Source: Candidatus Moraniibacteriota bacterium
Lineage (GTDB): Bacteria; Patescibacteriota; Minisyncoccia; Moranbacterales; UBA1568
Direction: 5' to 3'
Assembly (NCBI GenBank): GCA_016699875.1
Contig: CP064989.1
Span: 648,788 to 712,787, forward strand
Length of the DNA: 64,000 nucleotides
Part shown: positions 10,642 to 56,933 of the stretch, piece after piece
Layout: every line of letters starts with the position of its first letter
Position numbering within the stretch: the first letter of the stretch is position 1
Translations under genes and position numbers: made by a program
The notes under the pieces: generated by a model
Databases searched by the model: none
What the model was told of the DNA's origin: nothing
The model's input: the letters and a program-made list of their open reading frames with translations, nothing else

Positions 10642-12939
10642 TTATGGGGAGTTTCGGTAGGTGTATACGGCAATATCTCCACTTCGGAATATTTCGGTAA
10701 GATATTTTTCTCTGAAATCGAGGTAGTTTTCTATGCTTTCCCGGAAGAGGGCGGAAGTCTTTGGAGAAGTATCCTTTGCGTACCTGGCAGAATCAAGCCA
10801 TTGTCTTAGGTCGCCTTCTTTGAAGATAAAATATGAAACTTCGAGAGACTTTAACTTTTCTGCGAGTAGAGCGCCTTGGTTTTTATTTTGAAGAAAGTGG
10901 AACAAGTGCAAACAATAATCATATGTCACGATTGACTCTGGATTTTTTACATAGTAGTTGAGTGACGGGCCAATGGAATCCCATATAATGCCATTGGAGT
11001 TGTTTTTATTGAGGAAATCGGCTGTACTGTACAGGTTGTATTTCCCGGAATCTTCCCTTACAAAGAGAGTTCCATTTCTGAAAACATTATCAAAACGAAC
11101 GACGGCAACCGCAAGAGAAAGAGCTATGATGGAAAAAAACAGTGGAATTTTTATGACGTCAAACTGCTTTCTTGAGAGAATATCTCCGAAATAGAGGAGG
11201 GTAAGCAATAGCATTGACATGGCGTACCATGAATTGAGATTGCTTGATATTGCCCAGGAGATTCCCTGAAGAATGATAATGGTGCCGAGAATTTTTCTGA
11301 ACGGTTTTGTTGAAATGTCATCTTTCTTTGTTGAACAGAAAAAGAGTATAGGGAGAAAGAGAAGGAATAGAGGACCGATGTTTGTGATATCATTCTGATT
11401 TTTCTTGTCGTAATCAAATGTGAAACGAAATGGGGATTCAAGGAGAAATAACCAGCCTTTGTTTTCTTGATTTTCCGTGAAGATATAAGAATCGGAAGTT
11501 TGCTCCTGCAGGTGTTTCGAATAACTCCTTCCGATTTGCTTGAAGAAGGTGTCGTTGCGGGAGAGCAGGTTGCCGAGCGCAGGTTCGACAGGGTTGCCGG
11601 AGAAGATGATGTTTTTCACTGCCCATGGCGAAAAACAGATGGCGATAACAGTAAGGAGGAGCGTGATGTGGACGAGTCTTCTCTTCAAGCTGAATTTTCT
11701 TGGGAAGAGCAGAAGAACAGCGAGAAAACTTGGAAGAATTATGGAGAAGAAATTGTATTTTGTGCCACTTGCTATTCCGGCAAGAATAGCGAAGAGGAGA
11801 AAGGTTTTTCGTTCCGGTGTTTGGAAGAACTTCAGGAGATAGAGTGTGGCGAGAAGCGTGTAGCACCAAAAGGCGAGGTCAATCTTGTGATCGACAGTGA
11901 TCATGAGGTACGGAATCGCAGAGAGCATATATAAGAGGACAATAACGGGAGAACTCGCCTTTGGAAAAACAAACCGTTTGATAAGAATGAGAATTCCGGG
12001 GAGAAGAAAGTAGAAAACGGTGTTGAGTCCTGCGGCGGGAGTGAAGCCCCTCAGGAGGTGTGCGAGCGTGAAGAGCATCTCGGTATTTTGTGGGAATCCG
12101 CTTGCGAACCAATACTTGAAATTGACAATTTTGTGTGCTTCCGCGTAGGCGTGCGGGAAGGCTTGATACGTATGCATTTCGTCCCAGCCGGCAGCGAATT
12201 GGGAGAGGAGTCCGGTTGTTGCGAAAACGAAGAGAAAGAAGGATGCAATGATTGCGAAGTTGTCTAGGGTAAAAAATGGCTTGATATTCCACGAAATCGA
12301 TGTTCTCCTAATATCGGAGAAGAGCGTCAACCATTCTTTTCGGAAAGCAAGGAGTGTGCCCAAAACAAGCGCGTAGGCGAATGTCCCATAGAGAAATCCA
12401 AACATGCCGGCAATGTAAACAATGAGCATGAGTATGCCGAAACCAAGGAGTGTCGAGAGAATGAAGTGTTCGAGAAGTTCGGTTGTTTCAACATGAACTC
12501 GGCGGATGAGATGGCTTCCGATCGAAAAGCCGGCAAGCGTGATGAGAGTGACGAGGAAAATAGAGATGGTACTGTTTATCGAGATACCAATGTCGGGTTT
12601 GAGAAGGTAAATGAGAAGTATCCAACTCGCCGTACAGCCGTAGAAAACGATGATGAGGCTTTTGATGGGAACAAAGACCGTACTTGGCAGACGACGGATC
12701 CAGTGTATTGGCGGGAATTCTTTTCTGAGGAAGAGATAGGGGAGCGAGGCGAAGAAAAGAAGCGGTGCGAAAAATGCTGCAAGGAAAAGAAACAAAAGAA
12801 AAGCATCGAGATAGGATTGTCCGTAGGTTCGATAGAAATAGAAATACGCCGCCATGACACAGAGTGTCCAGAGCGCAAAGAAAAACAGCGGGATTTTTCG
12901 GAGAAAATATCTCATGAAGTGGAGTAGAAATTGCCTCAA
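10642..12939 (-). CDS. large polytopic membrane protein, probably a GT-C-type glycosyltransferase (ArnT/PMT/YfhO-like)
   Basis: 765 aa with more than 12 hydrophobic segments, an acidic loop motif (GWDEMHTY) and a long soluble C-terminal domain. The family assignment is inference. Confidence 0.55.
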
Positions 12940-45608: not shown

Positions 45609-47114
45609 ATGGCGCGTCAACCATCTTCTCGAAAGGCTCTGTCGAAGAAGAATCGCACAGCCCCCTCTTCTCATAAGAAGAAGTCTGTGCTGTTGTCGGC
45701 TCGACGATCGGTTCGGGGAGTATCCAAGACATCGAAAACATCCATGAAGAGTCTCAAGACCAAGAAAACGAAATCGACCAAGAAAGCGGTTGTGCGCCCC
45801 GCAAAAAAGAAATCCGTGGCGAGACCAGCAAAAAAGCCGGCGAAGAAATCATCGCCAAAGCAAAAACCGGCAAAGGCAAAGAAGCCGGTGTCAGCAAAGG
45901 CTTCTTTAAATCGAAAGGCTGCTCTTGAGAAGAAGCCGACTCCTACCAAACAAGAGCGCGAAGTGAAGAAACAGGAACGGGAAAGCAAGCGAGCTAATGC
46001 GTTTGAAGAGTTGCTGTTTCGCGGACGTCAACGCGGCTTTGTGACGGAAGACGAAATCATACACATCCTGCCGGATATCGAGCAGGATTTGGAAAATCTC
46101 GAAAATCTCTACGAAAAATTCGAGACAAGTGGCGTCAAAGTCGTGGACTCAAACGACATGTTGAAGCTCGAGACTGACAAGATCGGCGAGTCATTCTCGG
46201 ATAAGAAAGGAAAGTTGAAGAAGAAGACGAAAGATGCCCCGAGTCTCATGGGTGGCGTTGATCGTCCTGAAGAGGGCTCGGGCGATTCGTCGGATCTCGT
46301 ACAGATGTATCTCAAAGAGATCGGCCGCGTGCCGCTTATCTCCGGACAAGAAGAAGTGCGACTTGCGAAAGCGATGGAGGCGGGCGATGCGTCTGCCAAA
46401 CAGCGCCTGACCGAGGCTAATCTTCGTCTGGTGGTCTCGATTGCCAAGAAGTATGTCGGGCGTTCGCACAATCTTTCATTGCTTGATTTGGTGCAAGAGG
46501 GGAATATCGGGCTCTTTCGTGCCGTTGAGAAGTTCGACTTCCGTAAGGGTTTCAAATTTTCGACCTATGCGACCTGGTGGATTCGCCAGGCGATCACACG
46601 TGCGCTTGCTGATCAGTCGCGCACGATTCGCATCCCGGTCCACATGGTGGAGACGATCAATAAGTATTCCCAAGTGACTCGCCGTCTCGTGCAAGAGCTC
46701 GGTCGAGAGCCGCTTCCCGAGGAAATTGCCGTTGAGATGGGCGTTGAGGTAGAGAAAATCCGGCATATTCAGAAGATTTCTCAAGAAACCGTCTCGCTTG
46801 AGACGAGTGTCGGGTCGGACGATGATGAGAGTGTCTTGGGCGACTTCATCGAAGATACCGAGACGATTATGCCGCACCAGTCAGCGGCGCGGAAACTGCT
46901 TTCCGGACATATTGCCGAAGTCTTGGACGAGCTCTCGCCACGCGAGCAGAAGATTCTCAAGATTCGCTTCGGACTCGAAGACGGCATCGTGCATACGCTC
47001 GAAGAAGTCGGGCAAGAATTCGGCGTGACGCGCGAACGTATCCGCCAGATCGAGGCCAAAGCACTCGAAAAAATCCGCGATCATGATATTGTAAAGAAGC
47101 TCAAAGATTATTAA
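45609..47114 (+). CDS. rpoD: RNA polymerase primary sigma factor (sigma-70) with an N-terminal lysine/alanine-rich basic tail
   Basis: Regions 2-4 ([18 protein letters not shown].., [15 protein letters not shown]-terminal HTH). The first roughly 110 aa are a KKxxAKK-type low-complexity tract. Confidence 0.9.
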
Positions 47115-47572: not shown

Positions 47573-47647
47573 TCCGGCGTAGCTCAGCGGTAGAGCGAGG
47601 GACTGTTAATCCCCAGGTCGCAGGTTCGAATCCTGCCGCCGGAGCAA
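47573..47647 (+). tRNA. tRNA-Asn (anticodon GTT)
   Basis: Acceptor TCCGGCG/CGCCGGA, D-arm GCTCAGCGGTAGAGC, anticodon loop CTGTTAA, T-arm GCAGGTTCGAATCCTGC. No encoded CCA. Confidence 0.85.
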
Positions 47648-47652
47648 ATGAA

Positions 47653-47681
47653 AATAAGGCTTAAACACGCCTTATTTTTTG
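47653..47681 (+). terminator. terminator hairpin after the tRNA (ATAAGGCttaaacacGCCTTATTTTTT)
   Basis: Stem followed by T6. Confidence 0.55.
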
Positions 47682-47757
47682 TTACCCCGGACTGGAGTTC
47701 GAACCAATTTGTTTAAGATGCTATGATTTATTTATTATTTGCAAAGGAAATTAAATC

Positions 47758-48468
47758 ATGGAAGATAAAATTCTAAAATTAAATAATACAAGAATTTATG
47801 TTGTGAGAAGTATTCATCCATACACAAGAACCGTTACGGATGAAGAGCTTGCAAAGAAAGGTATTGGAATTGGAAATGATTGGGATAGCGATACTGATCA
47901 TGCGGCATATCAATGGAAAATGGTAGATCATTATGGATCGGGTATGGGCGTTATGTCCCGTGAATATAATATGCCTGTTGGAAAATGGTCCGTATATTTA
48001 GCTAAAGACTTGGAGCATGCAAAAAATAAATTTCTCAAGGAAAAGAAAAAAGAAGGCGATGTATTGTATATTGCTGAAATCGATTTAATTAAAGTTAAAC
48101 TTGGAAAAAATCTGCCGTTTGAATATATGGAGAAAGATGAAAATGGAAAATTGAAATATGCAGAAACTGCTTTAGAAATAGATAGTGATAATGAAGCTGG
48201 AGAGTATCACTTGGTATCCCAAAGGAGCTTAGAAACATTACAGGCAGGTCTCAAATGTGGATTTGATTCGACTGGAAGACTAAAAGATGATGGAAATCTT
48301 TTTGGCGAATTCTATTTGGATAATTATAAAGATCCCTCTCAAATTGAAAAAGAATATATTTTTAGAGTCAAAGAGGGGGAACATGTAGAAATAACCTCAG
48401 AAATAAAACGTCTAAGAGGGGAGATGGAATCTCAAAAAGAAAGGCTATCTAGTTTTAAGTTGAGATAA
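47758..48468 (+). CDS. hypothetical protein (first cassette of the low-GC island)
   Basis: 236 aa, K/E-rich and AT-rich coding. No recognised domain. Confidence 0.5.
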   Translation: MEDKILKLNNTRIYVVRSIHPYTRTVTDEELAKKGIGIGNDWDSDTDHAAYQWKMVDHYGSGMGVMSREYNMPVGKWSVYLAKDLEHAKNKFLKEKKKEGDVLYIAEIDLIKVKLGKNLPFEYMEKDENGKLKYAETALEIDSDNEAGEYHLVSQRSLETLQAGLKCGFDSTGRLKDDGNLFGEFYLDNYKDPSQIEKEYIFRVKEGEHVEITSEIKRLRGEMESQKERLSSFKLR

Positions 48469-48470
48469 TA

Positions 48471-48503
48471 AGGTTCTGGCATCATCCAATCTGGGTCTCA
48501 TGA
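48471..48503 (+). repeat. island 3' box, copy 1 (AGGTTCTGGCATCATCCAATCTGGG)
   Basis: Member of a repeat family sharing GGTTCKRAC-NTCNTCCA...CGGAGC. Confidence 0.6.
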
Positions 48504-48513
48504 ATTAATGAAA

Positions 48514-48578
48514 GAAGTTCGAACTTCCTCCAAGGCTCGGAGCTAGCTAATTTGAGGCTTTGTTAAGCCTCTTTTTTG
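48514..48578 (+). repeat. island 3' box, copy 2, plus hairpin terminator
   Basis: GAAGTTCGAACTTCCTCCAAGGCTCGGAGC...TTTGAGGCTTTGTTAAGCCTCTTTTTT. Confidence 0.7.
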
Positions 48579-48602
48579 ATACAAGGGGTTCTAACCTGGT
48601 AT
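48567..48602 (+). promoter_or_regulatory. sigma70-like promoter (TTGATA-18-TATACT) for the SDR cassette
   Basis: Spacing and hexamers close to consensus. ATG at 48615. Confidence 0.4.
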
Positions 48603-48614
48603 ACTAAAAGTACT

Positions 48615-49373
48615 ATGGAAAATTCTAAATCACTACAATCTAAAGTTGCTCTCGTTACTGGTGTTGGCAGAAAGGAGGGGATTGGTATGGCTATCTGTCG
48701 TGAACTTGCCAAAAATGGGGCAGATATTTTCTTCACCTACTGGCATCCCTACGATCAGGAAACTCATCCTGATAGTGAAAACAATATGCAAGCTCTTAGT
48801 ACTGATTTAGAGCAACTTGGTGTAAAAGTGAAGAGCAGGGAAGTAGACTTGTCTCAACCTGACTCTGCAGAGAGGCTCTTTGAGGAAGTAGAAAAAAAGT
48901 TAGGCACTCCTTCTGTTCTCGTAAATAATGCTTGCCATGACTTTGAAGTTGACTTCACGGAACTTTCACCAGAGATATTGGACTAGCATTATGTAGTGAA
49001 TGTCAGAGCTGTTACGATGCTCTGTAAAGAGTTTGTGAAAAGAGGAAAGACTGGACATATCATCAATATGACATCAGGCCAGTCTCTCGGTAGTATGGGA
49101 GGTCATAAAATTCCTTATACTATTACGAAGGCAGCTTTAGAGATGCTAGCACCGCAACTCGCTCCTGAATTGAAAAATCTCGGAATCTCTATAAATTCGC
49201 TCGATCCAGGGCCAACTGACACTGGTTGGATGACAGAAGAAGTAAAAGAGATGATTTTGAAGGATTCTAAAAAAGGATTTATAACTACCCCAGAAGAAAT
49301 CGGAAAGCTGGTCGTAAAGATTCTTACTCAAAATCAGTATAAAAGTGGAGAAGTAATTCACGCTGAACGTTAG
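48615..49373 (+). pseudogene. short-chain dehydrogenase/reductase interrupted by an in-frame TAG at 48984..48986
   Basis: N-terminal ALVTGVGRKEGIGMA (TGxxxGxG), NNAC, then after the stop S-x12-YxxxK (MTSGQS...YTITKAAL) in the same frame. Confidence 0.6.
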
Positions 49374-49384
49374 AAATCAAGGGC

Positions 49385-49950
49385 ATGGCTAAAATTTCAT
49401 TAGAAAAATTACTTTCTGAAAAAGAAGCAAAAGTTGGGGATACGATCTTTATTGCAGTTGATGGTCATGGTGGTTCTGGAAAATCAACATTTGCAAAATG
49501 GCTTTCAGAAGAGTTAGATGCACAAATTATTCAGACAGATGATTTTGCCTCCTGGGATAACCCGCTAAACTGGTGGCCACTTGTCATTGAGAAAGTATTT
49601 GATCCCATAAAAAAAGGAGCTAGGACTTTAAGTTATCCTCGATCATCGTGGTGGGAGAATCATCATCCAGAGCCAGTTATTGACCAGCCAGTAACAAAAA
49701 TTATGATTCTTGAGGGAGTGAGCTCTTTGAGAAAGGAATTTCGTAATTACATCAGCCTAGGTTTTTTTGTAGATACACCTTTGTTTGCAAAGAGGAGTAG
49801 AGAGAGATTCTGGCACTGGGAAAACAGCGCAGGAGCTCGAGGAAATGTGGAATAAGTGGTTTGCTGAGGAAGAAGTGTATATGAAGAGGGATAACCCTAA
49901 GAACTATGCTGATGTTGTTCTCGAGGGGTCAAAGTCATTTGTAGACCAGG
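49385..49950 (+). pseudogene. P-loop nucleoside/nucleotide kinase-like protein with a frameshift near 49815 (A-run)
   Basis: IAVDGHGGSGKSTFAKWL P-loop. The C-terminal AQELEEMWNKWFAEEEVYMKRDNPKNYADVVLEGS continues in another frame. Confidence 0.5.
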
Positions 49951-49963
49951 TTGATTAACCAAA

Positions 49964-50030
49964 CGGGTTCTAACATCATCCAGTACCCGGAGCTTACTTC
50001 AGAAAATGGCTTAGTATAGCCATTTTTTGT
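49964..50030 (+). repeat. island 3' box, copy 3, plus terminator
   Basis: CGGGTTCTAACATCATCCAGTACCCGGAGC...AATGGCTtagtatAGCCATTTTTTG. Confidence 0.7.
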
Positions 50031-50154
50031 TGCCTGGGAGTATTGACTCAAAGATGAAATTATGCTAAGATATATTATTCATTGACCTTCCTAAATAGAC
50101 GCGACAAACATCACGCGTTGTGGTGAGTCGAACCTGTTTAGGAGGATAAACGCA

Positions 50155-50361
50155 ATGGCGGAATATTGTAATTTGTCTCGAACGGACAGAGACAAGTTTC
50201 TCCAGTTTGCCAGAAATGGACGCTGGGGGACATGCGACGACTGCCCAAGAGATACGGATGGCCGAGTGTATCCCGAGTTCTGTCCCAATACGGACCGTTA
50301 TGACCATCGGATGACAATGGAGGAGTTGGCCGACTACTACAAGGTCCTTATAAAGGGATAG
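50155..50361 (+). CDS. small cysteine-containing hypothetical protein
   Basis: 68 aa. RBS AGGAGGATAAACGCA. CxxC-like (CDDCP...CP). Confidence 0.4.
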   Translation: MAEYCNLSRTDRDKFLQFARNGRWGTCDDCPRDTDGRVYPEFCPNTDRYDHRMTMEELADYYKVLIKG

Positions 50362-50466
50362 TCTGACCCAGAAGTAAGCAGAAGACTGCTGTTCTGGGTC
50401 TTTTGCTTTTCTATACCACCACCCACTCCAATTCTTTTAAGTCTTTCTGAATATTTCCCCAATCAA

Positions 50467-50530
50467 AAGTTCTAAGTTCATCCACTAGAGGGAGCCATTT
50501 AAAAAAGAGGCTTAGATTAGCCTCTTTTTT
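50467..50530 (+). repeat. island 3' box, copy 4, plus terminator
   Basis: AAAGTTCTAAGTTCATCCACTAGAGGGAGCC..AAGAGGCTTAGATTAGCCTCTTTTTT. Shares an extended roughly 110-bp unit with copy 5. Confidence 0.7.
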
Positions 50531-50695
50531 GTTTTTTCTGAATGCATACTAAAACATATTGACATAAATTTTAACATGTGCTATTTTAAAACGTTGTTTT
50601 GAGGTCTATTTATTTGGCTTATGGCACAATAAATACTTCAACAACAGATGATAAATTTGTTTTTTTGTTTTACAACACTACGTTGGAGGTCTACC

Positions 50696-50989
50696 ATGTC
50701 AAACGGAAGAACCTACGCTGTTCCGGCAGAGGATATCAAAAAGTATGTGGATCAGGCAATAGCGCAGCTTGGCCTCGATCCGGTGTTCGTGGATGACATG
50801 GACAGTGCCATGTATGCGCATCACCTTGTGTACCATTCCGAAAATGCAAGTGTTGCGAGGGAAGTATTTAATATGCCAGAGGCTTCCATTAGCGAACTAG
50901 CTCGGAAAATGGCTGATGCTGACGGGGAAACTATTACGAAAATTGAGAAAGATGAAAGGTATCAGTTGCCCCCCCCCTCATACAGGTGA
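50696..50989 (+). CDS. hypothetical protein
   Basis: 97 aa. RBS GGAGGTCTACC before the ATG. A TTGACA-17-TATTTT promoter lies upstream (about 50560). Confidence 0.4.
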   Translation: MSNGRTYAVPAEDIKKYVDQAIAQLGLDPVFVDDMDSAMYAHHLVYHSENASVAREVFNMPEASISELARKMADADGETITKIEKDERYQLPPPSYR

Positions 50990-51102
50990 GCGATGATCAA
51001 TAACTGATTACCCACCGCAGGAATCTGCCTCGGTGGGTTCTTGCTTTTTATGTCAAAGTCCATTCCAATTTCCGAAACACTTTCATAATTTCTCCCAAAT
51101 CC

Positions 51103-51175
51103 AGAGTTCTAAGTTTGTCCACCAGGCGGAGCAGCGCTAAATAGAGGCTTTAAAAAAGCTTTAATTTTTGTTTTT
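51103..51175 (+). repeat. island 3' box, copy 5
   Basis: AGAGTTCTAAGTTTGTCCACCAGGCGGAGC...ATAGAGGCTTTAAAAAAGCTTTAATTTTTG. Confidence 0.7.
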
Positions 51176-51314
51176 GTGGAGGGCTTTCTGGTTTGTTGGG
51201 AGAAACAAAAAATGATTTTGATTTACAGCTTAGCTATATTTACTTGCATAGAATATAACTAAGATGTACTATAGTTAGTATCGGGTAGATAAAATGTAAC
51301 TAAATTGCAAAGGT

Positions 51315-52484
51315 ATGATTTTAGGGAAATTTATTCGACAAAATACCGGTAGTATAGGCGAATATAAGGCATTTATACCAGACAAGTTCCCTCCAAAGGG
51401 CGGATTTTCGTTTTCTCCGGACATAGTGAAACAAGATGCAAAAGCCCAACATTTAGTAAGTAAGCTTGATGGAATTACTCAATTGCTTCCCGATGTCGAC
51501 TTTTTCATTTTCATGTATATCTTGAAAGATGCGACGTCATCAAGCCAGATTGAAGGTACGGGTGCTACCATGATTCATGCCCTGGAAGCGGAGGCTAAGA
51601 TTGATGTTGACCTTCCTGATGATGTCGACGATATCGTTCACTATATCAATGCACTTAACAAGGGCATGGAAATGCTTGGTAAACTTCCAATAAGTAGCAG
51701 ACTTGTGAAATCGATTCATAAGGAGCTGATGCAAGGAGCGCGATCGACCCATGATGCCGTTCCTGGTGAGTTTCGTCATGATCAGAATTGGATCAATGGT
51801 ACGAAACCTCAGGATGCGAAATTTGTTCCGCCGCCGGTACACGAAATGCAGCGAGCGCTCGACGATTGGGAAAAATTCGTACATAAAGATGATAATCTAC
51901 TTCCGCTTACCAAGGCCGCTATGTTGCATGGACAGTTCGAGACCATTCATCCATTTCGAGACGGTAATGGAAGAACTGGTCGCATGATAACCACGCTTTA
52001 CCTTCATGAAGCTGGTCTTCTCGAAAAACCAACACTGTTTCTCTCGTCGTATTTTAAGAGATATCAAAAGACATACTATGCTCGACTTGAAGGGTATCAC
52101 TCGGGTGAGGTTGAGGAATGGGTGCGATTCTTTTTGACTGGTGTAGCGGAAACGGCACAGGAAGCAATTGAAACTGTACATCGAATTACGAAGCTGCGCG
52201 AACGAGATATTTTGAAGATACAAGGTTTGGACAAAAGATCCTCGCAGAGCGCTATAGTTGTACTCCCGCAACTCTTTGCCTTGCCAATTATCGATATTGT
52301 GACAGTGAGCAGATGGACCGGTTTTAGTCAGAACGGGGCGCAAAAGCTGGTTGATCGATTCGTTGATCTCGGCATTTTGCATATTCGCGATGAGAATCGG
52401 AAATATCGACGGTCGTATATTTACAAAGATTATGTTGATATTTTTTATGACGCTCGAAGAGAAAAAAATGAAGCAATTGAATAG
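51315..52484 (+). CDS. Fic-family protein (AMPylase/ADP-ribosyltransferase-like), copy 1
   Basis: HPFRDGNGRTGR Fic motif. C-terminal wHTH-like region. 389 aa. Confidence 0.85.
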   Translation: MILGKFIRQNTGSIGEYKAFIPDKFPPKGGFSFSPDIVKQDAKAQHLVSKLDGITQLLPDVDFFIFMYILKDATSSSQIEGTGATMIHALEAEAKIDVDLPDDVDDIVHYINALNKGMEMLGKLPISSRLVKSIHKELMQGARSTHDAVPGEFRHDQNWINGTKPQDAKFVPPPVHEMQRALDDWEKFVHKDDNLLPLTKAAMLHGQFETIHPFRDGNGRTGRMITTLYLHEAGLLEKPTLFLSSYFKRYQKTYYARLEGYHSGEVEEWVRFFLTGVAETAQEAIETVHRITKLRERDILKIQGLDKRSSQSAIVVLPQLFALPIIDIVTVSRWTGFSQNGAQKLVDRFVDLGILHIRDENRKYRRSYIYKDYVDIFYDARREKNEAIE

Positions 52485-52519
52485 GTTTCGGAGTTTTTTG
52501 CTATGAACGAATTATTATT

Positions 52520-53178
52520 AGAACCTGTTTACAATCTTCCGGTACACTGAGGACATAATCCTCAAACCAAAAGAACCATGTATCCAAGCGACATAACCCG
52601 AGAACAATTCGAACACATCAGACCATTTCTCGAATCAACCAGGAAGAGAACCAAACCAAAGACACTTGATTCCTATGACGTATTCAACGCTCTGCTCTAC
52701 ATTCTGGTCACGGGTTGCCAATGGAGGGCACTTCCCAAGGATTATCCAAAATGGCAGAGTGTCTATCGACACTTCCTTGTCTGGAAGGAACGAAAAAACA
52801 AACAGACAGAGAGTATGCTTGAGCAAGTCTTAAAAAAAATTGGTCGAACAAGAACGTATGAAAAATGGCAAACAATGCAAAACCAGTTTCTGCATCGTTG
52901 ATGCTCAAAGTGTCAAGAATACAGATACGGCTCGAGAAAAAGGTTATGATGCAGGAAAAAAAGTTTCCGGTATCAAGCGACATATTCTCGTTGACACCAA
53001 CGGATTGCCGCATGCGTTCACGGTAACCACTGCTAACGTCACTGATCGAAAGAGAAGTTTCTCCTGGCTGGAGAAATGCCGAAGGCTCTGGAAGAATTGC
53101 GAACGGACACTGGATTCGAGCTTACAGATGATGGTTTTAAGTTTTGATCGATTGTTGTTGAAAAGATTGTAAACAGGT
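52520..53178 (+). mobile_element. internally deleted IS5-family element (IS427-like) with intact 18-bp terminal IRs
   Basis: IRL AGAACCTGTTTACAATCT (52520..52537) is the reverse complement of IRR (53160..53178). Only about 660 bp long. Confidence 0.7.
52578..53172 (+). pseudogene. IS5-family transposase remnant (orfA-like plus frameshifted, truncated orfB-like)
   Basis: FNALLYILVTGCQWRALP (DUF4096-like), then IVDAQSVKNTDTAREKGYDAGKKVSGIKRHILVDTNGLPHAFTVTTANVTD in the -1 frame, then a further frameshift and premature end. Confidence 0.65.
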
Positions 53179-53216
53179 TCTAAGACGTCTTAAGTAAGCC
53201 TAATTATTTATAAGAC

Positions 53217-53282
53217 AGGTTCTGACATCGTCCAGTGCTCGGAGCAGATGAAATAGAGGCTCATACAAGCCTCTGTTTTTAT
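53217..53282 (+). repeat. island 3' box, copy 6, plus terminator
   Basis: CAGGTTCTGACATCGTCCAGTGCTCGGAGC..ATAGAGGCTCATACAAGCCTCTGTTTTT. Confidence 0.7.
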
Positions 53283-53359
53283 GCTCTTACCAAGCAGATT
53301 CAGTCGTATCAATAAAAAACAGTGAATATTGTGATACTTATGCATTTTGTTAACTGTAA

Positions 53360-53388
53360 ATTGACAGAATATAGTGAATAGAATATAA
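53360..53388 (+). promoter_or_regulatory. consensus sigma70 promoter (TTGACA-17-TATAAT) for Fic copy 2
   Basis: Perfect -35 and -10 hexamers with 17-bp spacing, 27 bp upstream of the ATG at 53415. Confidence 0.55.
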
Positions 53389-53414
53389 TAAACACATAAT
53401 ATTCACTAAAAAAT

Positions 53415-54305
53415 ATGGCCATTACTAAACCAATTCGGAATCGTATTCAAAAATTAAAGAAAGAATTTGACGCTTTAAGAAAGGGAAAGGAGTCGCTTCT
53501 GACTCTTATTGATGAAGCTGAAATTCCGGAGAGTGTCTACAACTCTAATGCTATTGAGAATTCAACGCTGACGCTCCAGGAGACCGAAAAAATACTCCTT
53601 GATATTGCCGTATCGCGAGATGTATCTGTGCGGGAAGTCTTTGAAGCGAAGAATCTCGCTCGTGTTATCAACTATATCCGTACAAAGTCCCAGGAAAAAG
53701 AAATTGATAGGGATGTAATTTTACTCTTGCATCAGATGCTCATTGGAGGCATTAAAGATGAGATTGCGGGGCGTTTCCGAAATAAAGGAGAGTATGTTCG
53801 AGTGGGAACATATATCGCTCCGGCTCCGGAGCATATCAATCTGATGCTTGACTCGATCCTTTCCGAATACGGAAGCGATCATGATTCATATTTTCTTGAT
53901 AAAATAGCGAAGTTCCATCTACATTTCGAAAATGTTCATCCATTTTGCGATGGTAATGGTCGGATTGGCCGGGCTCTTGTCTGTTATCAACTGCTTCGAT
54001 TGGGATTTCCTTTGGTCATCGTTCGAAATAAAGAGAAAGAAATTTATTATAAAGCATTTTCAGATTATCGTGATCAAAAGAATTCGAAAACTATGGAAAA
54101 AATGTTTTCCCTGGCTCTTACAGAATCATTGCATAAGCGTATCACCTACCTGAAAGGAGAGAACGTTATTACTCTTTCCGAATATGCTAAGAAACATGGC
54201 GAATCGTCACCCGCCCTCTCGAATGCAGCTCGTCGACAGAATATTCCGGCTTTCCGAGAGAAGGGAGTTTGGAAGATCGGTGAGAAATTCAAAAAAGACC
54301 GGTAG
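53415..54305 (+). CDS. Fic-family protein, copy 2 (shorter, divergent)
   Basis: HPFCDGNGRIGR Fic motif. 296 aa. Confidence 0.85.
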   Translation: MAITKPIRNRIQKLKKEFDALRKGKESLLTLIDEAEIPESVYNSNAIENSTLTLQETEKILLDIAVSRDVSVREVFEAKNLARVINYIRTKSQEKEIDRDVILLLHQMLIGGIKDEIAGRFRNKGEYVRVGTYIAPAPEHINLMLDSILSEYGSDHDSYFLDKIAKFHLHFENVHPFCDGNGRIGRALVCYQLLRLGFPLVIVRNKEKEIYYKAFSDYRDQKNSKTMEKMFSLALTESLHKRITYLKGENVITLSEYAKKHGESSPALSNAARRQNIPAFREKGVWKIGEKFKKDR

Positions 54306-54327
54306 AGGATTTACTTGTTTTCTCAAG

Positions 54328-54392
54328 TAGGCTCGAACTTCTTTGAGAGCTCGGAGCTAGTAAAAGCAAGGCTTAATAGAGCTTTGTTTTTG
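54328..54392 (+). repeat. island 3' box, copy 7
   Basis: TAGGCTCGAACTTCTTTGAGAGCTCGGAGC...hairpin...GTTTTTG. Confidence 0.65.
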
Positions 54393-54518
54393 TTACCGAA
54401 GGAGGATTTAAACGGTCTGGACAGAAGCAACAAAGTATGCTATTATTAGAGGTCAGTTGAAATGACTGACCATTGTTGGGATGTTTCCGCAATGTCTTCC
54501 TGAAAGAGGATTGCAATC

Positions 54519-54962
54519 ATGTCACTTAAAAAATATACCCTCCCGAATCTACTCACATCGTTGTATGAAAGTGCAACAAAAGCGCTTCATGTAATTTGGT
54601 CAGACCGATTTGTAGTCATTCATGGGACTATTGTAAACCGTGAAGGGTCAAATTGGATTGTCAACCTGACCGTGCAGGTGCACTTCAAAACACCGCATTA
54701 TCACGGATGGACATTCCTTGAAGTTTCTGTGCATGTGAGTGAGTCTTTAAGGCATGCGACTGACAACGGACCCATCCTTGTCGAGGTGAAAAATCCTAAA
54801 ATGGATCCTCCTAAAATCATGATTGCCAGAGTTCTCGTCTGGAAGGACTGCTACAACCCAGACAATCCTCTGGACGCCTGGGGTCGGATGTATGTACGCG
54901 ACGACGACAAAAAAGACTTGGAGGTCATAGAGTACCTTGTATTGGAGGGAATTGTCGACTGA
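54519..54962 (+). CDS. hypothetical protein
   Basis: 147 aa. No motif. Confidence 0.4.
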   Translation: MSLKKYTLPNLLTSLYESATKALHVIWSDRFVVIHGTIVNREGSNWIVNLTVQVHFKTPHYHGWTFLEVSVHVSESLRHATDNGPILVEVKNPKMDPPKIMIARVLVWKDCYNPDNPLDAWGRMYVRDDDKKDLEVIEYLVLEGIVD

Positions 54963-55059
54963 TTCTCCCTGAGAAGAAGCTCCCAAAGGATAACTATCCG
55001 GCGGGAGCTTTTCAATTTCAAATGCTCAGCATGTAGATTTGAACTCGGTGCTTGATCCC

Positions 55060-55128
55060 CTTAATACATGGGTTCGTACTTCGTCCAACATGTGGAGCTA
55101 GTTTGGATGGTTTGTCCCCAAGGCAGAT
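55060..55128 (+). repeat. island 3' box, copy 8
   Basis: GGGTTCGTACTTCGTCCAACATGTGGAGC...GATTTTTTG. Confidence 0.6.
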
Positions 55129-55322
55129 TTTTTGTTTATATTAATCTTTGTTTTTATCCTGTAGATAAATGATTTCTGTACTCGGGAGAGCTTTTCTTCT
55201 TTAAGACTTGGTTCGAGAGGATACAAAATTAAGAAATTGCTGCTCTTGCTCGATATTTTCCTCTAGGAAGGTGGTCTTTGCTTAGCTGGCAGTTTTGACT
55301 AGGGATACCCGGGTAAACTATA

Positions 55323-55351
55323 TTGACAATTTATACTTCATGTCGTATAGT
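55323..55351 (+). promoter_or_regulatory. consensus-like promoter (TTGACA-17-TATAGT)
   Basis: Upstream of the 393-aa ORF. Confidence 0.45.
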
Positions 55352-55417
55352 GAGTTGTCAGTCTGGAAATCCAGGTATGACAAAACCCGATAGTAACTTA
55401 ACAGAGGACTAGACAGA

Positions 55418-56599
55418 ATGAGTAACAGCACCATTTTCTTTGAAGAAGCTCTGCGCGAAGTTGGTGTGAGCGATGTGGCGATTGCTGCCTTGATCGATAA
55501 CGAATACACTGATGTCAGCCAGTTGACTAACCTTGATGTCAATGACTTTTTGGCACTAGGCATCAAGGGTCGTCCAGCCTCGCTTTTGGCAGAAAAGTTC
55601 GGTAGACGTTCTGGCGGTCAATCAGTAGATTTGGATCAATCTACTTCGAAGCAGCCCATCAAGGTCGAGGTATCGTTGCCGAAATCGTTCGATCAAATGG
55701 GAACTTCCGAACTTCTCTCACAGCTCGCTGATACCAGTAACGCAGATGCGTTGTCGACATTGCTAGGTAAGCCGGAAGTGATTGCTGCTTCGGCTAGGAC
55801 GGATTCATGGGCTATTCCTGGCACTGGTGGAACGAAGCTGGATGTCGACGCGACAATGGCGTACATTCGCTATCTCGGTAAGCCAGGGGCAACTCCCCAA
55901 CGCCTGTATCAGGGACGTCGTCCCAAGAGCATCCATGTCATCCTTGGCGTTGTCGAGAAGACCCTGGTTAACCCATTTACGGGCGAGCCGGTGGTTGAGG
56001 GTTTGGATGCATCCGGAAATGACTGGTCGAAGACTGATCGTATCCTCATGAAAGCGATTTTGTGGGCGCGATTCACTCGACATAGGTTCTTCCCAGCCGC
56101 CATCGATCCATTCTCAGCCTTTGAGGAAATTTCTCAGCAGCCGCTGCCGCGGCGTTGGCAAGGTATTTTGGATGATTACAACGCGGCGGTCGAGGATGAA
56201 GATCCCGCGGCCTTGGGTGTGAGCTTGGCGTGGAAGGCTCCTACTGCTACCAATACCAACGGTAAGGGTGATACGATTGGCGGTGTCGCTGCTGAACAGC
56301 GGACTCGTGGCGCAGCGCTTGACCCGGAGTCTTTTGTCCGGGCGAAGTGTCAGGGTGCTGGTACTTTGTCCGGTATGGATTCAAAACTTGTTGGTGTCTT
56401 TTCGACTGTTGCTGTTTCTGGAATGAATCAGTCAGTCTGTGTTATAGTGCTGGATTCTTTTAAAGTAAGTGGTATGAATCAATCCGGCGTTGTTTACCTT
56501 GCTCCAGGTGCTGTCACAAAAGGATCGGGTATGGGAAACACCATCAGCATAGAACGGAAGAGTTGGGAACAGTTGGCTCAGATAGCCAGGGAATGGTAA
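55418..56599 (+). CDS. hypothetical protein (higher GC than its neighbours, two SGMNQS repeats near the C-terminus)
   Basis: 393 aa. No recognised domain. Confidence 0.45.
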   Translation: MSNSTIFFEEALREVGVSDVAIAALIDNEYTDVSQLTNLDVNDFLALGIKGRPASLLAEKFGRRSGGQSVDLDQSTSKQPIKVEVSLPKSFDQMGTSELLSQLADTSNADALSTLLGKPEVIAASARTDSWAIPGTGGTKLDVDATMAYIRYLGKPGATPQRLYQGRRPKSIHVILGVVEKTLVNPFTGEPVVEGLDASGNDWSKTDRILMKAILWARFTRHRFFPAAIDPFSAFEEISQQPLPRRWQGILDDYNAAVEDEDPAALGVSLAWKAPTATNTNGKGDTIGGVAAEQRTRGAALDPESFVRAKCQGAGTLSGMDSKLVGVFSTVAVSGMNQSVCVIVLDSFKVSGMNQSGVVYLAPGAVTKGSGMGNTISIERKSWEQLAQIAREW

Positions 56600-56674
56600 T
56601 AGTCCGTTAGCATCCTTCTAAAAGGAGCTTTATCAGGCGGTAGACTAGCATGTCTGCCGCTTTATTTTTTTAAA

Positions 56675-56705
56675 GAGGTTCGAACTTCTTCCATCGCTTG
56701 GGCAT
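56675..56705 (+). repeat. island 3' box, copy 9
   Basis: GAGGTTCGAACTTCTTCCATCGCTTGGGC. Confidence 0.55.
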
Positions 56706-56778
56706 TAAACGAGTGCCACGAGATTTTGAGTCTGTAACAGAGTATCTTCTGGATCAGGAAATATCCTCCCCCACTCAA

Positions 56779-56838
56779 ACGTTCGAAGGCTGTCCATCCA
56801 AGAGCAGATCAAATAGAGACTTGTATGATTCCCTATTT
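56779..56838 (+). repeat. island 3' box, copy 10 (degenerate)
   Basis: AACGTTCGAAGGCTGTCCATCCAAGAGCAGATCAAATAGAGACTTGTATGATTCCCTATTTTG. Confidence 0.45.
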
Positions 56839-56933
56839 TGTACCTTGGATCGAGGTTTATAATTCCGGGGTTGACCTTGGTAGTACTTCTGATGTAGAAT
56901 TCGACTTCTTTAACAACAAAAGGAGCGGGTGTA

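Follow-up and report, generated by a model that had tools for sequence, protein, structure and literature searches.

A tandem array of small gene cassettes at the 3′ end of a tRNA-Asn gene in a Moraniibacteriota genome, with a repeated box that probably derives from the 3′ end of a large serine recombinase gene

In a Candidatus Moraniibacteriota bacterium, a stretch of 64,000 nucleotides (contig CP064989.1, positions 648,788 to 712,787; hereafter the window) holds an intact tRNA-Asn gene followed by an island of ~9.2 kb, in which short gene cassettes end one after another in a shared 3′ box. The locus raises the question of what this box is and what kind of enzyme could have built the array. 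Our analysis leads to the conclusion that the box is very probably the phage-side attachment-site arm plus the last codons of a large serine recombinase (LSR) gene, left as the scar of insertion at the tRNA-Asn end. With similarly high confidence we take the island to be a tandem accretion array at the tRNA-Asn 3′ end, made by a CcrB-like LSR encoded outside the window. At the level of sequence, this reading draws on a box that is homologous to LSR 3′ ends, on the geometry of its half-site, on an exclusive linkage to tRNA-Asn, and on an array structure that recurs in many metagenome loci.

The pattern GTTCNNANNTNNTNCAN6GGAGC is found without mismatch at 48517, 49967, 50469, 51106, 53219 and 55072, and with 2 mismatches at 54331, always on the + strand. 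Together with three degenerate copies (48471, 56675 and 56779; 4-7 mismatches to the consensus) this makes 7 strong and 3 degenerate boxes, all on one strand and only between tRNA-Asn and ~56.8 kb, against 0.44 matches expected from shuffles, none of which gave 9 or more. An earlier sequence-only reading of this DNA had reported such boxes after tRNA-Asn, and its copies are real, including the three that are degenerate. The copies furthest from tRNA-Asn are the most degenerate. Outside the island the pattern gives 2 chance-like matches in the 64-kb window, and the stricter core TCCA-N6-GGAGC occurs on the + strand of the island and nowhere in the other 54 kb. The copies in the window follow GTTCKAAC-NTCNTCCA-N6-GGAGC, and the box consensus is GTTCKAAC-NTCGTCCA-N6-GGAGC, with no attC cores. 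The multiple alignment suggested in the earlier reading extends over ~85 nt and includes the hairpin and T-run, and the lower GC content reported for the island was confirmed (0.418 vs 0.487 and 0.505 in the flanks).

That reading had also described every unit as promoter, gene, box and hairpin. The promoters hold for most cassette starts: promoter-like sites number 31 vs 20.4 +/- 3.7 expected, with near-consensus + strand examples at 53361 (12/12), 55323 (11/12), 48576, 50559 and 54418. Terminator-like sites are likewise in excess (17 vs 7.6 +/- 2.6 expected) and nearly every unit ends in one, but a clean hairpin does not follow every box, being weak after 55072 and absent after 48473. Several cassettes carry their own terminator upstream of the box, and thus the box with its hairpin is a module separate from the terminator of the gene. 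A generic terminator of the species, which the earlier reading had named as the outcome that would refute it, was ruled out, since the box can be separated from the hairpin and is confined to the island in the window.

The identity of the box emerges from its opposite strand, which encodes W-L-x-x-V-D-D/E-V-R-T and a short tail. In 20 diverse copies the variation follows the codon phase of that strand, position 2 being the least and position 3 the most variable; a conserved Pro codon (CCN) has a wobble entropy of 1.96 bits, and Ile and Thr codons behave alike. The same codon-position entropy ruled out a coding frame on the forward strand. Within a subfamily whose tail is 24 codons long, a stop occupies codon 25 in 8 of 11 diverged copies. 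The codons W-L-P/R come from TGGCTCC, which is GGAGCCA of the tRNA-Asn end in reverse complement. All-against-all clustering of open reading frames (ORFs) identified two loci, L181 and L174, where the frame continues through the box (...ADNPNWLPLVDEFRTLNWVKIERELEFY-stop) and the ORFs share homology with the C-terminal end of an LSR found at its full length of 498 amino acids (L093, 8110-9603; Pfam Resolvase 1.3e-16, Recombinase 1.3e-13). In the window, the tail at box c50467 matches the C-termini of LSR fragments by blastp at E=6e-9 (P0001) and 1.2e-8 (P0028), where the best of 160 shuffles reached 2e-3, and by tblastn at E=1.8e-4. The full-length LSR P0172 ends in 10 residues (..HVMEEVRTLLKK-stop) to which c56675 is 90% identical (E=9e-5). 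Pfam gave no match to the reverse-strand box peptides, and candidate explanations of these peptides as N-terminal antitoxin pieces (YefM, AbrB or HicA-like) or as a mini-gene were rejected because the frame continues upstream into the recombinase. The earlier statement that no recombinase is visible is correct for enzyme genes in the window, but not for the box, which itself carries the last codons of an LSR on its opposite strand and in this way identifies the enzyme family.

This LSR family comprises more than 1700 full-length relatives of 487-542 amino acids, from sources whose names include Parcubacteria, Peregrinibacteria and Peribacteraceae; one relative carries the NCBI name 'cassette chromosome recombinase B'. 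Most of them end in W-L-[PR]-x-[QLR]-D-S-N.. or WLPG-stop, and a minority have box-type tails. The former ends read as the antisense of a tRNA T-arm and acceptor, so these proteins represent integrated copies. Individual loci illustrate the arrangement: tRNA-Asn directly adjoins an LSR fragment in L207, contig and LSR end inside an antisense tRNA in L206, and the LSR of L093 runs into a tRNA-like 3′ end. In L204, a full-length LSR is present with an intact box.

The L204 gene has surroundings of its own. It stands in a defence island (1-21521; HpaII restriction-modification (R-M) with Vsr, an OLD-like ATPase, a 2262-residue NACHT protein and SocA/Panacea) with a tyrosine integrase beside it and no tRNA within 10 kb. 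At ~11380-11460 (LSR codons ..ETKNPFAG..) the conserved LSR motif K-N-P-F is encoded by AAAAACCCCTTT, and the tRNA strand there forms a GC hairpin and T-run; the integrase coding sequence may thus double as the tRNA terminator after integration. A further observation concerns an ORF of 100-140 amino acids, found in hundreds of genomes of the candidate phyla radiation (CPR), that corresponds to the coiled-coil and C-terminal part of the LSR only (..RITKDIYDKKHQE...SPFNLVLELADNPNWL..; P0001-P0120; for example L181 1156-1533 and L207 10001-10357). These short ORFs have a constant N-terminal breakpoint, 60-75% identity among copies and no internal stops, and give the impression of a fragment that is conserved, and possibly domesticated, not of one in random decay.

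If the box is an attachment-site arm, it should be related to the tRNA end as one half-site of an LSR is to its partner. The tRNA reads GGTTCGAA-TCCT-N6-GGAGC and the box GGTTCKAA-CNTCG-TCCA-N6-GGAGC. The proximal motif (TCCW-N6-GGAGC) is fixed in position, whereas the distal motif (GGTTCGAA) lies 5 bp further out in the box. This shift appears to be the published rule for LSR half-sites, by which the motif of the zinc-ribbon domain (ZD) is displaced by 5 bp between attP and attB while the motif of the recombinase domain stays in place (Rutherford et al. 2013, PMC3783163; see also PMC12286644). If the GC of GGAGC is taken as the approximate centre, the distal motif occupies tRNA positions 13-21 and box positions 18-26, close to positions 11-19 and 16-24 in the LI integrase model. 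The predicted site sizes, ~44 bp vs ~54 bp, are consistent with the Rutherford and Van Duyne model. Identity between tRNA and box is limited to (C)GGAGC(CA), and the crossover would lie in or next to GGAGC(C). A crossover further 5′ was ruled out because the 3′ parts of the boxes cannot pair with the 5′ acceptor strand of the tRNA, and one in the T-loop because these 3′ parts can never have formed the end of a tRNA.

To the right of the putative crossover, the tRNA and every box are followed alike by 12-14 nt and then GGCTT. The units of the window share a conserved left end, consisting of the terminator and sometimes, after it, a motif termed LE, the reverse complement of which has tRNA-like (B-type) spacing (GGTTCGAA-C-TCCA-N6-GGTAAC). 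Half-site alignment, and local alignment to L204 and L181, did not assign these right half-sites (GGCTT hairpin arm, LE) clearly to B′ or P′.

The arrangement recurs beyond the window. A scan of metagenome contigs with the pattern from this window, GGCT being required downstream, returned at least 120 loci. Most of the listed matches are genuine, since their consensus, (a)aacagGTTCTAACgTCGTCCAc...gGGGAGCCA, is far tighter than the pattern. ARAGORN found a tRNA in 11 of 40 listed loci; all are tRNA-Asn, lying upstream of the boxes and in the same orientation. In addition to the window itself, 31 listed loci have 2-6 boxes each, always on one strand, at a spacing of 378-5297 bp (median 1192 bp; 47 intervals), and the 3′ end of the box copies the end of the host's own tRNA (CGGAGC in the window, CGGGGAGCCA elsewhere). 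The cargo of the listed loci includes hydrolases, Fic, MNT/HEPN, GNAT, methyltransferases and TetR, with 72 ORFs co-oriented with the boxes and 22 opposed; most of their array units, like all units of the window, are without an LSR. The module of terminator and LE stands at a constant offset of 29-36 nt after boxes or tRNA-Asn in L115, L162, L098, L129 and L138, and LE follows ~10 of 134 boxes (~7%) at a fixed offset among the matches listed. Loci L111 and L137 have the right-hand unit in common (98.8% identity) and differ in their left-hand units, while L104 and L173 show the converse. Comparison of these pairs indicates that units recombine at boxes.

Viral sequences extend these findings. 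A prophage adjoins a box in L203; the other matches of the box pattern in the viral scan were chance matches in coding DNA. Viral relatives of the LSR (IMG/VR, 32-39% identity; L217, L229-L234, L238, L239) read antisense into tRNA-Gln, tRNA-Pro or tRNA-Arg, and free-phage copies (L213, L214, L221-L225) end in W-L-x5-(V/F)-R-T with tails of 20-35 amino acids. The tail swap on integration thus appears to be a property of the LSR clade that is not limited to tRNA-Asn. Together, the viral-contig relatives and the L203 prophage indicate that the enzyme is at least partly phage-borne.

We propose that attP would lie inside the 3′ end of an LSR gene antisense to the tRNA, with the codons W-L (TGGCTC) being the reverse complement of part of GGAGCCA at the tRNA-Asn end. 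Integration would split this gene: the body would stay beside the tRNA, with a shorter new C-terminus read from the antisense tRNA, and the P-type half-site with the last 10-26 codons would move to the far junction (attR). Each box of the window would then be an attR-type scar, in which the P arm and LSR tail meet, at GGAGC, a terminator that resembles the flank of the tRNA. New units would enter at the tRNA, and older junctions would be pushed outward and decay. A unit without an LSR would consist of terminator, promoter, one or two genes, and tail with P arm. Such units would be small cargo cassettes supplied with LSR in trans from a phage or integrative element or, alternatively, attR-proximal 'moron' ends left by phages or integrative elements. 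Matters of inference are which dinucleotide exactly is crossed over, in what order the units were inserted, whether they are mobile today and what supplies the enzyme. In this form, the earlier proposal of a cassette-like array next to tRNA-Asn, built by site-specific recombination, is borne out.

Several observations weigh against this proposal. To our knowledge, the classical rules for LSRs allow no second integration into attL. The junction at the tRNA appears to resemble B-c-B′ (attB) and not B-c-P′ (attL), which these rules do not predict. Regular-expression and tblastn searches of the 64 kb found no LSR gene or remnant of an LSR body at any of the ~10 junctions. The half-site motifs are putative ones, derived from sequence alone, and box frequencies among the loci listed are biased by the window-derived pattern and the GGCT requirement. 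Additionally, the change of partner between L104 and L173 falls at about box position 16 and not at GGAGC, which hints at homologous or other recombination at boxes as well. Three routes are possible for the growth of arrays without LSR: a permissive, Ccr-like enzyme may mobilise the cassettes in trans, imprecise excision may leave attR-proximal 'moron' ends behind, and homologous recombination at boxes may contribute.

The main competitor is that the island is a graveyard: each unit would be the attR-proximal stump that remained when a once full-size prophage or integrative element lost its recombinase and body by deletion, and would never have been mobile as a small cassette. Temperate phages commonly carry promoter-gene-terminator 'morons' next to attP, LSR remnants truncated to 103-209 amino acids lie beside tRNA-Asn or boxes in many CPR genomes, and the prophage next to the box of L203 is in keeping with such an origin, as are the pseudogenes in two cassettes of the window and the dead insertion sequence (IS) in one. 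However, the units are of tight size (median 1.2 kb over 47 intervals), and their left ends share the terminator module, with or without LE, at a fixed offset and not at random end-points. Furthermore, the ~10 junctions lack LSR-body remnants and units are seen with different neighbours. We consider this explanation unlikely, although it retains appreciable weight.

The remaining explanations each account for one aspect of the box. A structured RNA, that is a tRNA-like element in the 3′ untranslated region (UTR) or a processing element on cassette transcripts, would fit a sense-strand box that sits between gene and terminator and resembles a T-loop followed by the tRNA-Asn acceptor end, often with CCA. 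The sequence-only reading had offered this as its alternative, but RNAalifold on 42 diverse copies returned an invariant 3-bp stem of -1.5 kcal/mol with a covariation term of 0, and an Rfam scan at gathering threshold found tRNA only. Variation that tracks the codon phase of the opposite strand also argues against an RNA, which moreover leaves the exclusive position downstream of tRNA-Asn unaccounted for, and we judge it very improbable. Direct repeats every 0.4-2 kb, diverse small cargo that includes toxin-like and defence genes, and a loose imperfect palindrome formed by box, hairpin and LE are what an integron would offer, in which case an IntI-like tyrosine recombinase, encoded elsewhere, would act on the boxes as attC-like sites in folded single-stranded form. 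Yet six-frame regular-expression searches found no tyrosine-recombinase box II motif in the window or the true box loci; the box lacks RYYYAAC/GTTRRRY cores, and its inverted partner LE follows only ~7% of boxes. Cassettes with near-consensus promoters at their starts and their own terminators have no common Pc layout, and the box is accounted for base by base as LSR coding sequence and LSR half-site. The integron type, which the sequence-only reading had named as one kind of array that the locus resembles, is on these grounds scarcely tenable. A free-standing small gene on the reverse strand, encoding a peptide of 10-30 residues after every cassette, has in its favour codon-like conservation and the fixed 24-codon length of one subfamily, a length that is explained by the natural stop codon of the recombinase. 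In the listed loci its 'start' codon would be GTG in 54%, CTG in 28%, TTG in 11% and ATG in 7%, there is no Shine-Dalgarno sequence, and the frame runs on upstream into the recombinase in L181, L174, L204 and many database proteins; we give this explanation almost no weight.

An LSR-built accretion array has its nearest known counterparts in the Dehalococcoides ssrA islands and the tandem cassettes of the staphylococcal cassette chromosome (SCC). McMurdie et al. 2011 (PMC3146451) described ssrA islands in tandem, each bounded by a direct repeat that copies the 3′ end of ssrA, with a conserved element-specific motif just upstream of each repeat and the CcrB-family LSR DsiB on the reverse strand directly beside attL; some islands had no integration module, which was attributed to 'accretion' or mobilisation in cis. 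Tandem units downstream of a single-copy small-RNA gene, a repeat of the gene's end at their boundaries, a characteristic motif just upstream of each repeat, a CcrB-family LSR antisense beside attL (here L207, L206 and L093, as a gene or a fragment) and units without the LSR are shared features. In contrast, the ssrA islands are 10-30 kb long, target tmRNA and cross over in the T-loop, whereas here the target is tRNA-Asn, cassettes measure ~0.4-2 kb, the crossover would be at the extreme 3′ end, the scar contains the recombinase's own last codons, and the arrays occur in CPR/Patescibacteria and other hosts. Hossain et al. 2024 (PMC11470126) reported tandem, defence-rich SCC arrays in which cassettes without ccr are mobilised by Ccr from a neighbour. 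SCC and SCCmec at rlmH resemble the present array in their CcrB-type LSRs, a housekeeping-gene 3′ end as target, att repeats between cassettes and enrichment in anti-phage defence, and differ from it in that here the target is a tRNA, the units are far smaller and attP lies inside the recombinase gene.

More distant systems share single features. Phage LSRs (A118/LI, Bxb1, phiC31) have the common proximal motif and the 5-bp displacement of the distal motif between P- and B-type half-sites, but no tRNA 3′ end as target, no attP inside the int 3′ end, no arrays, and an attL inert to further integration. In SSV1-type archaeal integrases and in mycobacteriophage integration-dependent immunity, integration at a tRNA splits or truncates an element gene that overlaps attP, and the protein of the integrated element is not the same as that of the free one. 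Both use tyrosine recombinases; the SSV1 int gene is cut near its 5′ end and the mycobacteriophages truncate a repressor, unlike the exchange of the C-terminal 10-35 residues of a serine recombinase considered here. Integrons likewise have small, diverse, mostly co-oriented cassettes, a repeated recombination site and a fixed entry point, but the present array differs in enzyme class and site architecture, in its double-strand sites and in cassettes with their own promoters and terminators. The present case is set apart from the closest systems by the tRNA-Asn target, miniaturised single-gene cassettes with their own promoter and terminator, the CPR hosts, and an attP that overlaps the stop region of the integrase. 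Our literature searches found no description of such tRNA-Asn box arrays. The 'unrecognised mechanism' that the earlier reading had considered gives way to a recognised one, recombination of attP with attB by an LSR at a tRNA 3′ end with tandem accretion, in a miniaturised form not described before.

With the site naming the enzyme family and predicting attP, attB and the crossover region, an apparently enzyme-less, integron-like oddity becomes a testable system. The results also point to a large serine integrase clade, with more than 1700 relatives including phage-borne ones, that targets tRNA 3′ ends and carries attP in its own 3′ end. With attP so placed, every integration would exchange the extreme C-terminal tail, and the free and integrated enzymes would differ at the C-terminus, which bears on directionality control. 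It has been proposed that an element at the extreme C-terminus of the SprA integrase forms part of a toggle switch, as cited in PMC12286644. For CPR hosts, which have tiny genomes and few described mobile elements, the locus reveals a conserved hotspot after RpoD-tRNA-Asn that collects accessory and anti-phage genes (SoFic, PDC-S04, HEPN/MNT and R-M), and the short sites could serve as new LSR landing pads. A wider and rather improbable hypothesis is that tRNA-Asn would act in CPR/Patescibacteria and some other lineages as an integron-like platform for gene capture, where defence-rich single-gene cassettes without LSR would be inserted, shuffled and excised in trans by CcrB-like LSRs borne on phages or other elements, the exchange of the C-terminal tail would switch directionality or re-target the enzyme, and the ~100-residue coiled-coil LSR fragments would be domesticated regulators. 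If true, tail exchange would be a built-in switch, and would explain a receptive attL and the growth of the array.

Table 1. Features of the tRNA-Asn locus, the boxes and the cargo in the window (window coordinates; aa, amino acids)
Feature	Position	Strand	Evidence or sequence
tRNA-Asn(GTT), intact, target gene	47573-47645	+	ARAGORN; Rfam RF00005 71.8 bits
Putative attB-type (B) half-site, last 23 nt of tRNA-Asn	47623-47645	+	GGTTCGAA-TCCT-GCCGCC-GGAGC
Right of the putative crossover at the tRNA: A-rich spacer, terminator hairpin and T-run (47656-47680), LE (47681-47705)	47646-47705	+	hairpin AAGGC..GCCTT; LE GTTACCCCGGACTGGAGTTCGAACC
Cargo, ~8 units, nearly all co-oriented with the tRNA	47706-56677	+	ORF list, Pfam, PADLOC, PHROGs
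ORF, 236 aa, unknown	47758-48468		
Degenerate box, 6 mismatches, directly after the stop codon of cassette 1 and 18 nt before the next full box; no hairpin	48473-48499	+	
Box c48514 (GTTC 48517, GGAGC end 48543) with LSR tail codons; terminator 48554-48577	48498-48543	+	opposite strand L-R-A-L-E-E-V-R-T-S-F-I-N-S-stop
Short-chain dehydrogenase (SDR) pseudogene, second cassette	48615-49373		in-frame TAG 48984-48986
P-loop kinase-like gene, frameshifted, second cassette	49385-49958		49385-49855 / 49785-49958
Box c49964; hairpin and T-run ~50008-50029	49967-49993	+	opposite strand ..LRVLDDVRT...
ORF, 68 aa	50155-50361		
Box c50467 with complete 24-codon LSR tail and natural stop; terminator 50500-50537	50411-50497	+	opposite strand W-L-P-L-V-D-E-L-R-T-F-D-W-G-N-I-Q-K-D-L-K-E-L-E-W-V-V-V-stop (WLPLVDELRTFDWGNIQKDLKELEWVVV-stop)
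ORF, 97 aa	50696-50989		
Box c51103 with 24-codon tail	51048-51132	+	L-L-R-L-V-D-K-L-R-T-L-D-L-G-E-I-M-K-V-F-R-K-L-E-W-T-L-T-stop
SoFic anti-phage defence protein, Fic domain, full-length model match	51315-52484		PADLOC E=1e-107
Decayed IS5-like IS with 19-bp perfect inverted repeats; frameshifted, shortened transposase	52520-53180	+	repeat AGAACCTGTTTACAATCTT; phrog_33747 transposase 1.5e-11
Box c53217; hairpin and T-run ~53255-53280	53219-53245	+	opposite strand LLRALDDVRTCLINN-stop; blastp E=6e-4
PDC-S04 (candidate system) Fic protein	53415-54305		PADLOC E=5.6e-35
Box c54328, 4 mismatches to consensus; then hairpin, T-run and partial LE	54331-54357	+	partial LE GTTACCGAAGGAGGATTTAAAC
ORF, 147 aa	54519-54962		
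Box c55060; only a weak hairpin after it	55072-55098	+	opposite strand LHMLDEVRT..
ORF, 393 aa	55418-56599		
Box c56675, decayed, distal	56678-56704	+	opposite strand NAQ-A-M-E-E-V-R-T-S-L-K-K-stop
Box c56779, decayed, distal, 24-codon-type tail	56781-56807	+	MDSLRTFEWGRI...

The features of the window are collected in Table 1. Boxes c56675 and c56779, at the right edge of the array, are presumably its oldest junctions, and among the sequences downstream of boxes, that of c53217 is the closest match to the tRNA's own flank. The cargo close to the tRNA is already in decay, as seen in the stop codon of the SDR gene and the frameshift of the kinase-like gene. Two different Fic-domain proteins, SoFic and PDC-S04, are encoded in adjacent cassettes, and this cargo fits a defence hotspot. 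The decayed IS5-like element separates the SoFic gene from box c53217. Its terminal repeat (..AAACAGGTTCT) is similar to the beginning of a box, and a look-alike at 53176, not among the copies given in the earlier reading, is its right inverted repeat.

In L100 (oriented 481-700), ~130 nt past tRNA-Asn, a 15-nt exact repeat of the tRNA's 3′ end (CTACCCGGGGAGCCA) is preceded by an LE-like inverted motif; this repeat is a very short unit or an empty junction.

Upstream of the island, RpoD (45609-47114) has a long Lys-rich N-terminal extension and is encoded directly upstream of tRNA-Asn, where a small HypC-like ORF is also found. RpoD places the window in Patescibacteria; the RpoD-based genome scan gave only one relative, a Moraniibacteriota metagenome-assembled genome with 73% identity and no boxes, and exact-sequence searches with the two genes upstream of tRNA-Asn gave no match. 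The RpoD-tRNA-Asn synteny recurs in L171, L192, L112 and L180, with different sequence downstream. In several Patescibacteria assemblies (L003, L007, L013, L206), contigs break off at tRNA-Asn or within it, probably consistent with strain-variable downstream DNA breaking the assemblies at this point.

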